A stretch of 64,000 nucleotides of DNA from an uncultured Clostridia bacterium (GTDB lineage Bacteria; Bacillota; Clostridia; Christensenellales; CAG-314). The translations under genes were made by a program, and so were the position numbers. Under the pieces are notes generated by a model that ran no database searches, was not told the origin of the DNA, and saw only the letters and a list, made by a program, of their open reading frames with translations. Position 1 is the first letter of the stretch, and every line of letters starts with the position of its first letter. The DNA lies in the NCBI GenBank assembly GCA_947629985.1, contig CANRFV010000001.1, positions 252,407 to 316,406 of the forward strand. The letters are read 5' to 3'. Positions 16,972 to 50,612 of this stretch are shown here, in pieces.

Positions 16972-17150
16972 ACGCGCAAAGAAATGGCAATTTGCGAAAA
17001 CCGCATTGAAAAAGTGTGCGGTACAGCGATAAAATAATAAGATTGCTTGACGAAATAATGTTCATAAATGGAATAATGTTCGTAAATGGAAAAGGAAGGC
17101 GTAAAAACGTCTTCCTTTTCCGTTGCAACTATAAAGCGCTGTTGCCGCTA

Positions 17151-17285
17151 TGGTGCCGGTGATTTGGACAGAACCGACACGTTTTCTCCAACATCGGATT
17201 TTGAGTCCGACGCGTCTGCCCTTAGCCGAGCGAGCAATGCGAGCGAACGCCACGGAGCGTAAGCGTAGTATTCCACCACACCGAT
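17151..17285 (-). pseudogene. tRNA-Leu(CAA)-like copy with 49-nt D-loop insertion and degenerate T-arm
   Basis: Collinear with the intact gene but carries an insertion at 17221-17269. The 5' acceptor strand is ATCGGTG, and the T-arm has diverged to GTCGGTTCTGTCCAAAT. Confidence 0.6.
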
Positions 17286-17320
17286 ATAAAAAAACGCAAG
17301 CCGCTACGACTTGCGTTTTA

Positions 17321-17380
17321 TGGTGCGGTGAGACTTGTCCTTGCAAAGCAAGGTAAGCGAAGTAAAACGGAGCGCTACAT
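17321..17380 (-). ncRNA. Chimeric module + tRNA-Leu 3' fragment ending in CCA, with its own terminator (copy 1)
   Basis: Minus strand reads ATGTAGCGCTCCGTTTTACTTCGCTTACCTTGCTTTGCAAGGACAAGTCTCACCGCACCA. It is followed at 17286-17319 by an AAACGCAAG...CTTGCGTTTTTTT terminator. Expression has not been tested. Confidence 0.35.
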
Positions 17381-17483
17381 TATTTCGGTATCGCACACAC
17401 AAAAATCCAAAGGCAGCAATGGAAAAGGAAGGCGTAAAAACGTCTTCCTTTTCCATTGCAACTACAAAGCGCTGTTGCCGCTA

Positions 17484-17618
17484 TGGTGCTGGTGGTGGGA
17501 CTTGAACCCACACGTTGTCTCCAACATCGGATTTTGAGTCCGACGCGTCTGCCCTTAGCCGAGCGAGCAATGCGAGCGAACGCCACGGAGCGTAAGCGTA
17601 GTATTCCACCACACCGAT
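17484..17618 (-). pseudogene. tRNA-Leu(CAA)-like copy with 49-nt D-loop insertion
   Basis: Identical to the intact tRNA from the D-loop GG to CCA. Insertion at 17554-17602 lies between AAT and GGCAGA. The 5' acceptor strand ATCGGTG mispairs at 3 of 7 positions. Confidence 0.65.
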
Positions 17619-17653
17619 ATAAAAAAACGCAAGCCGCTACGACTTGCGTTTTA

Positions 17654-17713
17654 TGGTGCGGTGAGACTTGTCCTTGCAAAGCAAGGTAAGCGAAGTAAAA
17701 CGGAGCGCTACAT
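17654..17713 (-). ncRNA. Chimeric module + tRNA-Leu 3' fragment ending in CCA, with its own terminator (copy 2)
   Basis: Same sequence as 17321-17380, one repeat unit later. Terminator at 17619-17652. Confidence 0.35.
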
Positions 17714-17816
17714 TATTTCGGTATCGCACACACAAAAATCCAAAGGCAGCAATGGAAAAGGAAGGCGTAAAAACGTCTTCCTTTTCCATTGCAACTACAA
17801 AGCGCTGTTGCCGCTA

Positions 17817-17902
17817 TGGTGCTGGTGGTGGGACTTGAACCCACACGTTGTCTCCAACATCGGATTTTGAGTCCGACGCGTCTGCCATTCCACCACACCA
17901 GC
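17817..17902 (-). tRNA. tRNA-Leu (anticodon CAA), class II, CCA encoded
   Basis: Hand-folded. Acceptor GCTGGTG/CACCAGC; anticodon arm TCGGA-CTCAAAA-TCCGA; long variable arm GTTG-GAGA-CAAC; T-arm GTGGG-TTCAAGT-CCCAC; discriminator A plus CCA. Confidence 0.9.
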
Positions 17903-18054: not shown

Positions 18055-18130
18055 CTATCCGTAGTCTAATTGGATAAAATTGTGCCCTCCGACGGCATCG
18101 TTTCGGGTTCGAGTCCCGACGGGTAGACCA
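18055..18130 (+). tRNA. tRNA-Arg (anticodon CCG), CCA encoded
   Basis: Hand-folded. Acceptor CTATCCG/CGGGTAG (one G-U pair); anticodon arm GTGCC-CTCCGAC-GGCAT; T-arm TCGGG-TTCGAGT-CCCGA. The D-stem has one C-A mismatch. Confidence 0.8.
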
Positions 18131-18245
18131 TTGTCGTACTACGCCTTGTAGTCGCATCCGAACGGCGCGCCCTTTGCGGCGTGCCTTTTCGTTTGTTCCT
18201 TATGGCTTGTACGCCAATTCGCCTTTCCGCCGTGAGAACGAAATA

Positions 18246-18375
18246 ATGTAGCGCTCCGTTTTACTTCGCTTACCGAGTTTTCTCGGACGAGTCCCGACGG
18301 GTAGACCATTGTCGTACTACGCCTTGTAGTCGCATCCGATCGGCGCGCCTTTTGCGGCGTGCCTTTTCGTTTGTT
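18246..18375 (+). repeat. Module + duplicated 3' end of tRNA-Arg plus trailer and terminator
   Basis: 18246-18288 is ATGTAGCGCTCCGTTTTACTTCGCTTACCGAGTTTTCTCGGAC. 18288-18375 repeats 18110-18197 (T-loop C56 to CCA plus the 67-nt trailer) with 2 substitutions. Confidence 0.85.
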
Positions 18376-49089: not shown

Positions 49090-49303
49090 TTGTACACCTC
49101 GGCATAATTGTAACAGACCGGAACGCGTATTGTCAAACTATTGCGGGGCGGCGTGCGCGCAATAGGAAAAAAATCGTAAAAAAAGCCGTAACGTTACGTC
49201 AATATTGCGCAAATAGCCGCAAAAAAGCGTGCAAGCGCAAATTTACGCAGTGCGACAGCGCCGGCTACGAGCAATAAATATTGCGCGGATTGCGTAATTG
49301 CAG

Positions 49304-49332
49304 TTGACAAATGCGAAATAAAGTTTTATACT
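49304..49332 (+). promoter_or_regulatory. tRNA-Gln promoter
   Basis: TTGACA-17 nt-TATACT, ending 11 nt before the tRNA 5' end. Confidence 0.6.
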
Positions 49333-49343
49333 ATCAATGATAT

Positions 49344-49418
49344 TGGGGTATCGCCAAGCGGTAAGGCAACGGATTCTGACTCCGTCATCCGCAGGTTCAA
49401 ATCCTGCTACCCTAGCCA
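49344..49418 (+). tRNA. tRNA-Gln (anticodon CTG), CCA encoded
   Basis: Hand-folded. Acceptor TGGGGTA/TACCCTA with U1-A72; anticodon arm ACGGA-TTCTGAC-TCCGT; T-arm GCAGG-TTCAAAT-CCTGC; discriminator G plus CCA. Confidence 0.9.
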
Positions 49419-49536
49419 AGCGGGCAACTGCGCTTTTGGTTGCAACGGAAAGGAAGCACTTTTGGGTGCTCCCTTTTCCTTTGCTGTCCTTTTGCTTGTT
49501 GCCCTTTTCTGTCGTGTAGACAGGACAGTTTGAATT

Positions 49537-49684
49537 ATGTAGCACTCCACTGCGTTTCGTTTACCTTGCGCTTCGCTTAGGACAAATCCTGCTACCCTAG
49601 CCAAGCGGGCAACTGCGCTTTTGGTTGCAACGGAAAGGAAGCACTTTTCAGTGCTCCCTTTTCCTTTGCTGTCCTTTTGCTTGT
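49537..49684 (+). repeat. Module + duplicated 3' end of tRNA-Gln plus trailer (copy 2)
   Basis: 49537-49583 is ATGTAGCACTCCACTGCGTTTCGTTTACCTTGCGCTTCGCTTAGGAC. 49583-49684 repeats 49398-49499 (T-loop C56 to CCA plus the two trailer hairpins). Confidence 0.85.
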
Positions 49685-49826
49685 ACACCATATAAGTCAA
49701 TATCATAACTTGCGGGGCCCCCAATAAGACGTAGCGCAGCAGTCTTGTTGGGGAGAGGAGCAACCGCCCGACAGCGGTACCGTCTGCGCTTGCACAGGCG
49801 AGGCTGTCATAGCGCGAGTTGCGACG

Positions 49827-49953
49827 ATGTAGCACTCCACTGCGTTTCGTTTACCTTGCGCTTCGCTTAGGACAAATCCTGCTACCCTAGCCAAGCGGGC
49901 AACTGCGCTTTTGGTTGCAACGGAAAGGAAGCACTTTTCAGTGCTTCCTTTTC
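49827..49953 (+). repeat. Module + duplicated 3' end of tRNA-Gln plus trailer (copy 3)
   Basis: Same module at 49827-49873. 49873-49953 again repeats the tRNA-Gln 3' end and trailer. Confidence 0.85.
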
Positions 49954-49988
49954 GTTTATATTGAACTATATTGTACTATATTACAAAT

Positions 49989-50612
49989 TTAATCGGGGTC
50001 GCATACGTCGCCGAAAGTGCGAATTACGACGTTTACCGTATCGTAGCCGTAACCGCGGTACAACAAATAACGTTGAAGTTTTTGCAATGTTTTGACGTCT
50101 GCCGTTTTGCCGCGCATATACTTTTGCGCAAGGGCGCTTGCGTTGTTGAGCGCTTGGTCGCCGTCCATTTGCGAATATTCGTCGGCGCGCGTTACGGATA
50201 TGCCCTTGCCGATAAGTTCCTGCCTTATTCGGCGCGAACCTTTTGTGGCGCTGTTTTGGCGGGCGTACATCTGGGCGTACGCGTCGTCGTCGAGATAGCG
50301 CAACTGTTTCAGACGGTCGATGGCGTAATCCACTGTCTGCGCGGTATATCCTTTGCGCGTGAGATAATCGCGCATTTGCTTGCAGGTTTTGCTTGCGCGA
50401 GACAAATAATCGATTGCGCGCTGCAAAGCCATCGAACGTTCGCTATCCGCAATTGCCTGCTGCAATTTGGCTGCGGATACGTCCTGTCCTATCTTCAAAC
50501 CCAACTTCATTACCGTTACCATTTCCAGAGCAAAAGCGTACTCGCCATCCACGTATATGTTGGCGCGGGTCTTGTTGTTTTTTTGAATTTGCATATCGGT
50601 AATTTTGGGCAT
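49989..50612 (-). CDS. recX: RecA regulator RecX
   Basis: 207 aa from the internal ATG (MPKITDMQ). Three-repeat helical RecX pattern (ALQRAIDYLS, YLTRKGY, LRYLDD..YA). Confidence 0.8.
   Translation of the reverse strand: MPKITDMQIQKNNKTRANIYVDGEYAFALEMVTVMKLGLKIGQDVSAAKLQQAIADSERSMALQRAIDYLSRASKTCKQMRDYLTRKGYTAQTVDYAIDRLKQLRYLDDDAYAQMYARQNSATKGSRRIRQELIGKGISVTRADEYSQMDGDQALNNASALAQKYMRGKTADVKTLQKLQRYLLYRGYGYDTVNVVIRTFGDVCDPD

Follow-up and report, generated by a model that had tools for sequence, protein, structure and literature searches.

A non-coding cassette ending in a copy of the local tRNA 3' end forms a tandem array behind tRNA-Gln(CUG) in an uncultured Clostridia bacterium

The array behind tRNA-Gln(CUG)

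We analysed a stretch of 64,000 nucleotides from an uncultured Clostridia bacterium (order Christensenellales, lineage CAG-314; assembly GCA_947629985.1, contig CANRFV010000001.1, positions 252,407 to 316,406 of the forward strand), which we call the window. In the interval between recX and udk, the 3' end of tRNA-Gln(CUG) occurs three times. What appears as a triple repeat is an array in which 2.5 units of a cassette of about 165 nt, hereafter E, follow one another in tandem; E is non-coding and specific to the genus. A preliminary description of the locus had placed three copies of the segment from the T-loop base C56 to CCA, each with its trailer, at 49398, 49583 and 49873, and had noted an identical module ahead of copies 2 and 3. 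The three copies have exactly these coordinates, and the module lies at 49537-49582 and 49827-49872. The features of the locus are listed below in window coordinates (DR, direct repeat; T, V and M, the parts of E described in the next section; R1, the covariance model of E).

49304-49332, plus strand: promoter-like site of tRNA-Gln, TTGACA-17-TATACT, agreeing with 11 of 12 consensus positions
49344-49418, plus strand: tRNA-Gln(CUG), intact, with the CCA encoded (ARAGORN; Rfam, 61 bits)
49398-49418, plus strand: DR1, tRNA nt C56-A76, the first 21-nt direct repeat, within the tRNA (exact mapping)
49419-49506, plus strand: trailer T of unit 1, with helix P1 (49422-49428/49498-49504), an alternative small hairpin and the long hairpin 2 (49442-49484)
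49507-49536, plus strand: segment V of unit 1, with GTAG(A)CAGGA (49516-49525) antisense to tRNA-Gln nt ~60-68, then TTTGAATT
49537-49582, plus strand: core M of unit 1, ATGTAGCACTCC...CGTTTAC followed by a short hairpin and GGA (the "47-nt module" of the preliminary description)
49583-49603, plus strand: DR2, second copy of tRNA nt 56-76 (exact mapping)
49604-49684, plus strand: trailer T of unit 2, broken after GCTTGT, without the 3' strand of P1 and without V (R1 match at 49612-49684, model positions 10-83)
49685-49826, plus strand: X, a nested, hairpin-rich repeat of 142 nt in place of the P1 3' strand and V of unit 2 (fold of -55.6 kcal/mol, z = -3.1)
49827-49872, plus strand: core M of unit 2, identical to that of unit 1 (exact mapping)
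49873-49893, plus strand: DR3, third copy of tRNA nt 56-76 (exact mapping)
49894-49965, plus strand: third trailer, truncated, with a perfect 17-bp hairpin (49917-49956) and then a T-rich tail; it abuts the 3' end of recX (minus strand)

A repeat search recovered the array as a 131-nt repeat family at 49352, 49537 and 49827, with spacings of 185 and 290 nt, and the 46-nt core M gave two matches where shuffled sequences are expected to give none. From C56 to the end of the trailer, copy 1 is identical to copy 2 at 100 of 102 positions and to copy 3 at 81 of 85, and copies 2 and 3 agree at 83 of 85. Unit 1 (49419-49582) is a canonical E. Units 1 and 2 are 98-100% identical outside X and share a direct repeat of 102 nt. 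The preliminary description had concluded from the unequal spacings that this is not a simple tandem duplication; the outcome is right, and the spacings differ because unit 2 holds the nested X. Relatives of X occur directly ahead of M elsewhere in this genome (C7:300-442 and C5:~136000) and in G018 (L222), and another lies in inverted orientation in G065 (G, C and L numbers denote genomes of the genus, contigs of this genome and individual loci, respectively). Nested inserts in other E units sit at the V/M border or inside M.

The recX-udk interval is reproduced base for base in one independent public assembly (L061), and a second (L062) matches the array through unit 2, up to its own contig end. 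Mis-assembly of the array is therefore unlikely. These are the two matches among the public contigs that encode an identical Udk protein; four others, one of them from a strain that is 98% identical, end where the repeat starts, and no variant is visible among these contigs.

We found no credible open reading frame within 49419-49965. At gathering thresholds, Rfam returned the tRNA only, and a sensitive Rfam scan of 49300-50000 gave nothing except the tRNA below an E-value of 0.6. A promoter scan found no site ahead of units 2 and 3 that is comparable to the promoter of tRNA-Gln. A terminator scan of units 1 and 2 flags only the inner stem with its CCCTTTTCCT tail, while the hairpin of the third trailer (-32 kcal/mol) directly precedes TTTTCGTTTATATT, as judged by eye. 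The truncated third trailer is probably the working terminator of the Gln locus.

Anatomy of the cassette

We read what follows each of the 46 tRNA genes of this genome and derived the anatomy of E from alignments of its copies. The first base of E is the first base after the tRNA CCA. From there it runs, over about 165 nt, through the trailer T, the segment V, the core M and a direct copy of nt 56-76 of the local tRNA.

T has an outer helix (P1), a small alternative hairpin and the long hairpin 2. The two hairpins that had been proposed for the trailer do exist: the Gln trailer folds with -37.5 kcal/mol (z = -3.9) and its third copy with -32.2 kcal/mol (z = -6.0). The strands of P1 covary between loci (GGGCAAC/GTTGCCC for Gln, GGGCGGAC/GTCCGCCC for Pro and GAGCGGC/GCCGCTC for Val). 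Over 43 distinct sequences, 93.9% of the cells pair and 17 of the 22 pairs show compensatory changes, in an alignment that had been fitted to the covariance model. None of 500 shuffles does as well, and slid registers also fall far behind. One pair is G-U in 25 sequences, which indicates that T folds on the sense strand. At more than 20 loci, the sequence at the base of the hairpin 2 stem (GCAACGGAAAGG/CCTTTTCCATTGC) is conserved.

V is a variable stretch with a degenerate reverse complement, of about 9 nt, to tRNA nt ~60-68, that is, to the 3' strand of the T stem and the first acceptor bases. Examples are GATGACAGGA (Leu-CAG, G008), CATAGGGGA (Glu, G003), GACAGTAGGA (Val-CAC, G018) and GTAG(A)CAGGA in the Gln unit studied here. 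The mean local complementarity is 7.3 with the cognate tRNA and 5.9 with non-cognate tRNAs (p = 2e-5). Position by position, the match at nt 60-68 is 68-82% for cognate against 34-54% for non-cognate tRNAs (p = 3e-7). Further, V tracks the variants of the same tRNA between species (Glu). Since E also ends in a tRNA copy, it holds an antisense and a sense target arm that flank M.

M spans about 50 nt and reads (C)GAAAT-AAYGTAGCGCTCC ... CGCTTAC, followed by a short covarying hairpin and GA. Its core motifs are nearly invariant across the genus although udk is only 66-77% identical. Signals on the strand that folds are mixed in this part. Mismatches in the terminal hairpin slightly favour the top strand (six G-T against one A-C), and the GTAGCG/CRCTTAC stem holds C-A mismatches, read from the alignment, that would be wobbles on the bottom strand. 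The folding energy of the whole unit does not differ between the sense and antisense strands. In unit 1, the part from V through M to the repeat folds no better than shuffled sequence (z = -1.0), and the pairing of V with the repeat is absent from its minimum-energy fold.

The preliminary description had left two options for the trailer, either that it belongs with the module to one repeat or mobile unit, or that it is a dedicated signal for termination or 3' processing. Both were right in part. The covariance model identifies trailer and module as the halves of one cassette of about 165 nt that follows many tRNAs, which bears out the repeat unit; its mobility is weighed below. For the second option, the covarying sense-strand hairpins and the T-rich tail of trailer-only and truncated copies speak for termination, and from these sequence features the trailer half most likely also terminates the tRNA transcript. 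Three features are new with respect to that description, namely the antisense match to the tRNA within the cassette, the trailer-like copies away from tRNA genes (see below) and the truncation of the third copy.

Distribution across tRNA genes and genomes

We searched genomes with R1 and obtained 32 matches in this one. Here E follows the CCA of tRNAs Leu-CAA, Arg-CCG, Gln-CUG, Ser-UGA, Pro-CGG, Pro-GGG, Met, Val-UAC, Ala-GGC and Ile-GAU. It is found at 10 of the 33 tRNA-operon ends, and the other 23 have plain terminators. The trailer is thus not the generic terminator behind most tRNA operons that the preliminary description had considered. Besides the Gln array, the window has E at two further tRNA genes:

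17665-17817, minus strand: E directly after tRNA-Leu(CAA), with a second copy at 17332-17484 in a 333-bp tandem array
18129-18293, plus strand: E directly after tRNA-Arg(CCG), with tRNA-Arg nt 56-76 repeated behind it and then part of a trailer

The Gln and Leu trailers had been reported to share their sequence. They are identical at 69 of 93 aligned positions, with a score of 37.5 against -5.9 +/- 4.2 for shuffles, and they are homologous because both are the T part of E. The tRNA-Arg(CCG) locus (18129-18375) shows a state of 1.5 units, like that of tRNA-Gln in G018.

R1 found between 1 and 28 copies of E in 35 of the 36 other genomes sampled in the genus, and none in the remaining one. Outside the genus, the search gave one weak match in 24 other families of the order and no match in 299 further genomes of the class (178 genera). 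The NCBI records that match E are labelled uncultured Clostridia, Oscillospiraceae, Christensenellaceae or Candidatus Fimimonas and come from animal and human guts. At 30 loci that we fetched, E begins 0-2 nt past the CCA of a tRNA on the same strand (Ser, Val, Glu, Ala, Gln, Thr, Met or Leu) and terminates in the last 20 nt of that very tRNA, mostly exactly and in some cases with 1-3 substitutions. In a tree of E copies, the grouping follows the species subclade and not the tRNA type. Hence, the copies within a lineage share recent ancestry or exchange sequence, with arms that match different tRNAs, and within a lineage E has spread among at least 12 tRNA types.

Some copies depart from this pattern. 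In this genome, T-like copies are also found where there is no tRNA gene (e.g. C4:11766, C3:167625 and C5:134309), so the trailer is not strictly tRNA-specific. The Pro(CGG) cassette (C2:192219-192386) ends in a Val-UAC-like copy of the tRNA 3' end and the Val(UAC) cassette (C4:81625-81802) in a Val-GAC-like one. Such non-cognate ends suggest past recombination between cassette copies at different loci.

Filled, empty and multi-copy sites

The tRNA-Gln(CUG) gene is nearly identical across the genus, and the sequence downstream of it differs. It is followed by:

a plain terminator in G017, G036, G026, G023, G030, G021 and G066
a trailer-only terminator in G022, G063, G032, G010 and G068
a truncated E and foreign DNA in G031 and G020
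one E in G065, G018, G013 and G006 (by sequence) and in further species (by repeat spacing)
two E units, the second interrupted by a nested insert of 317 nt, and then a partial trailer in G002, the architecture seen in this genome
at least three perfect tandem units in G067 (period 189 nt) and G069 (period 214 nt)

In 7 of the 22 species whose downstream region was read, tRNA-Gln(CUG) has the plain terminator. The repeat number at this tRNA therefore ranges from zero to at least three between species, and is not invariant, the other objection that the preliminary description had raised. In the filled site of G013, tRNA-Gln is followed by E, a 20-nt copy and then TTTTGAGT. In the empty site of G017, as well as behind the displaced tRNA copy of G013, the CCA directly abuts TTTTGAGTGCATT. 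This clean pair of filled and empty sites shows that E is a DNA insertion.

The 317-nt insert of G002 (L095, 415-730) contains a GC-rich, strongly folded sequence of about 130 nt with at least 15 dispersed copies in this genome (among them C2:2633-2724, C3:105148-105238 and C4:143338-143466). It is another small repeat family of the lineage.

Neighbouring genes and candidate recombinases

Across 50 loci, no protein recurs next to E. The sole recurrent neighbour is an integrase, which we found only at tRNA-Gln loci without E; it adjoins tRNA-Gln(CUG) in G017, G026, G023 and G021. Islands of 6-8 kb lie behind the same tRNA in G031 (L093) and G013 (L094). Each is bounded by the displaced 3' half of the tRNA, beginning in the anticodon stem, and then comes a plain terminator as in G017. 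In G031 the cargo includes a radical-SAM gene cluster; in G013 it includes a HipA/HipB-like pair and a fragment of a type I restriction system. No integrase reading frame of at least 90 aa was seen inside either island. The identity block of the islands at tRNA-Gln(CUG) extends from the anticodon stem to 8 nt past the CCA and comes without M. Nowhere did we find T and M ends separated by genes: the matches to trailer and V only that we opened are cassettes with small nested inserts.

A XerS-like recombinase is present in all genomes of the genus. An extra XerC/D-like gene occurs in 12 of 37 genomes, including six of the seven with at least 16 copies of E, and the mean number of E copies is 13.9 with this gene and 5.6 without it (p = 0.004, in a test that ignores phylogeny). 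This extra gene scores below the NCBIfam Xer cut-offs and is missing from several E-rich genomes. In the genome analysed here, a XerC/D-like tyrosine recombinase of 316 aa (C5:3929-4879) adjoins lysS and greA and scores below the NCBIfam cut-offs for XerC and XerD; this chromosomal gene is found in only about a quarter of the genus. The XerC/D-like gene lies divergently upstream of tRNA-Leu(CAG) in G008, G002 and G019. A search of the whole genome with three known dif consensus sequences, allowing up to seven mismatches, gave no convincing match to a dif-like site.

Related inserts inside tRNA copies

Inserts related to M, or to one another, interrupt tRNA copies elsewhere. In the 333-bp tandem array behind tRNA-Leu(CAA) (window 17088-17902, minus strand), each distal unit holds a 5'-truncated second copy of tRNA-Leu. 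This copy has a 49-nt insert in the D loop, between AAT and GGCAGA, that is related to M (the two have ACGCTCCGT...TTCGC in common). Around tRNA-Arg(ACG) (C2:105500-106300) there is an 87-nt tandem array in whose units a leader precedes tRNA nt 1-27, split between nt 7 and nt 8 by a 42-nt insert. This insert and the one in the Leu D loop are members of one family; here it has the opposite orientation and sits at AAT^GGC on the other strand. The same region contains a full second copy of tRNA-Arg that is interrupted by two inserts, one at position 7/8 and the other in the T loop. At C2:~265040, a pseudo-tRNA-Met has an anticodon-loop insert of this family.

How E may move and multiply

The explanation that we favour, and that we consider probable without being close to certain, is that E is a gene-less DNA insertion mobilised in trans by a site-specific recombinase at the T loop of tRNA genes, a mechanism that we infer from its anatomy and distribution. 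The recombinase would act at the junction between nt 55 and 56. The nt 56-76 and the trailer that E brings along would restore the 3' end of the tRNA and supply a terminator, and each insertion would leave a fresh copy of the target behind. The part from V to the repeat may fold, V pairing with the repeat so that the target duplex is re-created, and insertion would possibly take place on the folded strand. The constant end of the repeat at A76 can be explained without an RNA intermediate, as every tRNA has the same distance of 21 nt from C56 to A76. Arrays may grow when E inserts again into the target that it has regenerated, or when direct repeats of at least 100 nt cross over unequally, and the 102-nt repeat shared by units 1 and 2 makes both routes possible. 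Unit 2 of the Gln array would later have taken up X, and unit 3 would have been cut after hairpin 2.

Several observations weigh against mobilisation by a recombinase. The only pointer to such an enzyme is the correlation of E copy number with the XerC/D-like gene. In the alignments, the first 3-5 nt of E vary, so that it has no conserved 5' terminus, and its two ends are not complementary, which means that terminal inverted repeats are lacking. Many copies have a degenerate V, and the z-score of -1.0 for V-M-repeat of unit 1 leaves the idea of a folded site without thermodynamic support at the Gln locus. Recombination at the core identity alone does not account for arms that change to suit a new tRNA. 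The non-cognate downstream repeats of the Pro-CGG and Val-UAC units need a secondary explanation, i.e. recombination between E copies.

A more specific form of the mechanism, which we regard as unlikely, would make E a cassette that hijacks a recombinase by means of a rewritable address. V and nt 56-76 would be arms around the core, re-templated for each tRNA. The folded single strand would re-create the duplex of T arm and acceptor, and a host Xer-like or other tyrosine recombinase would insert it at the T loop.

E could instead be mainly an RNA device, a structured trailer and terminator of the tRNA precursor that spreads by recombination and not by transposition. The fold of T does lie on the sense strand and is backed by strong covariation and by conserved G-U pairs, its trailer-only and truncated copies resemble real terminators, and a single promoter serves the whole array. 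Yet the device would be dispensable, as plain terminators take its place at tRNA-Gln(CUG) in 7 of 22 species and at 23 of the 33 operon ends here, and one genome of the genus does without any E. The near-invariance of the M motifs, against the divergence of udk, suggests constraint; however, nested inserts split M or delete V in units that are still retained, and the downstream repeat and V drift or get replaced in many copies. The perfect tandem units imply recent amplification at the DNA level. Upon read-through, the device would yield a small RNA whose V pairs with the tRNA-like 3' end into a minihelix mimic ending in NCCA, which the host would keep for tRNA processing, for quality control or as a decoy; at the Gln locus, the fold of V-M-repeat is not significant. 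On balance, we judge an RNA device clearly unlikely.

An equally low standing goes to the proposal that E units are scars of attachment (att) sites, left as attL-attR remnants by integrations and imprecise losses of integrase-bearing islands, in the manner of cis-mobilizable elements (CIMEs), and made tandem by accretion. Intact tRNA, element and displaced 3' copy are the layout of integrative elements of the T-loop class, and tRNA-Gln(CUG) does host classical islands in the genus (those of G013 and G031, and the integrase in G017, G026, G023 and G021). These islands, however, use a different identity block without M, the integrase genes occur only at loci without E, and no element ending in T and M has genes between its ends, the partial matches examined being cassettes with nested inserts. 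It is important to highlight that one conserved sequence of 165 nt with matching arms follows at least 12 tRNA types, which independent decay of islands would not yield. That the array arose without a dedicated element, from a tRNA-Gln 3' region that was duplicated locally in tandem and then decayed, is very improbable. Direct repeats of at least 100 nt would ease unequal crossing-over, and units 1 and 2 are nearly identical outside X, but across 35 species many tRNA genes of unrelated kinds are followed by this unit and its M, and the boundaries of the insertion are clean. Local duplication is thus contradicted as the full explanation and is likely a contributor to array growth. Least credible of all is a retro-copy, in which a reverse transcriptase would copy the RNA of E and either change template to the 3' end of a mature tRNA or take that end as its primer. 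Template switching has a precedent in the Neurospora retroplasmids, which reportedly incorporated tRNAs in this way, and the left junction of E is the mature 3' end in every tRNA type, with a repeat that looks like a 3' tRNA fragment. The fixed 21-nt distance from C56 to A76 explains the coincidence with CCA without an RNA intermediate, and a reverse transcriptase (PF00078) was detected in just 7 of the 47 genomes of the genus; of the seven genomes with at least 16 E copies, five lack it, and its presence has no association with E copy number.

Two further candidates were rejected. The right end and guide of an IS200/IS605-TnpB element does not fit, as there is no tnpB, the whole unit measures about 165 nt and the tRNA is restored on the left. 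A self-cleaving ribozyme has no match in Rfam and no visible core motifs.

If the address does direct insertion, E would be a compact and retargetable integration signal, and small repeats would have a new route to shape tRNA loci, through arrays, pseudo-tRNAs and rearrangements. Read conservatively, about a third of the tRNA operons in the genus end in a common covarying terminator structure. In practice, E cassettes fragment metagenome assemblies at tRNA genes, and repeats of tRNA ends in this genus should not be taken as borders of genomic islands.

Comparison with known systems

The tRNA genes are classic landing sites of mobile DNA. Islands, prophages and integrative and conjugative elements (ICEs) that insert in the T loop use tyrosine integrases, and gene-less CIMEs build tandem arrays by accretion. 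Integration at this sublocation of tRNA genes was reportedly described by Williams in 2002, and CIME accretion is said to be covered by the literature on ICESt1 and ICESt3. To our knowledge, the known elements of tRNA genes encode an integrase and are tied to one tRNA. A full-text literature search returned no description of cassettes such as E.

Like T-loop integrative elements and CIMEs, E leaves the tRNA intact, is flanked by a displaced 3' copy that starts in the T loop, builds arrays with at least three repeats and is variably present. Unlike them, it is about 165 nt long with no integrase in it or near it, one E family serves at least 12 tRNA types with matching arms, its repeat ends exactly at A76, and it holds an antisense copy of the target. 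Its identity block also differs from that of the real islands at the same tRNA in the genus.

Recombination at folded single-strand sites is known from the attP(+) site of the CTX phage, which is used by XerCD (as in the integrative mobile elements exploiting Xer, IMEX), and from the attC sites of integrons. These sites share with E the inverted and direct copies of the target around a spacer of about 50-90 nt and a structure conserved above the sequence. As in E, integration regenerates the target, which leads to arrays, and the element encodes no recombinase. The target of E is, in contrast, a tRNA gene and not dif or attI, the stem between V and the repeat is short and often imperfect, the mismatch signals of M are mixed with respect to the strand, and the recombinase is only a candidate. 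We therefore offer the resemblance between an antisense arm, a core of about 50 nt and a sense arm, on the one hand, and CTX attP and attC, on the other, as an analogy.

Miniature inverted-repeat transposable elements (MITEs), the Correia, RUP and BOX repeats, and repetitive extragenic palindromes with their bacterial interspersed mosaic elements (REP/BIME) are, as E is, small, multi-copy, non-coding, hairpin-rich, restricted to a lineage and capable of termination. E differs from MITE-type repeats in having neither terminal inverted repeats nor a short target duplication (its flanking repeat is 21 nt, versus target-site duplications of 2-10 bp), in its strict position and orientation after the tRNA CCA, and in a 21-nt target copy that changes with the tRNA. 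With Rho-independent terminators it has in common the long sense-strand stem of hairpin 2 with a T-rich 3' side, and the T runs in which trailer-only and truncated copies end. In E, however, the base of the stem is conserved in sequence and is enclosed by a second covarying helix, and the tail of the full unit is only moderately T-rich. Although it carries neither the integrase that defines tRNA-gene integrative elements nor the inverted termini and short target duplication of MITEs, E works like a miniature tRNA-gene integrative element.

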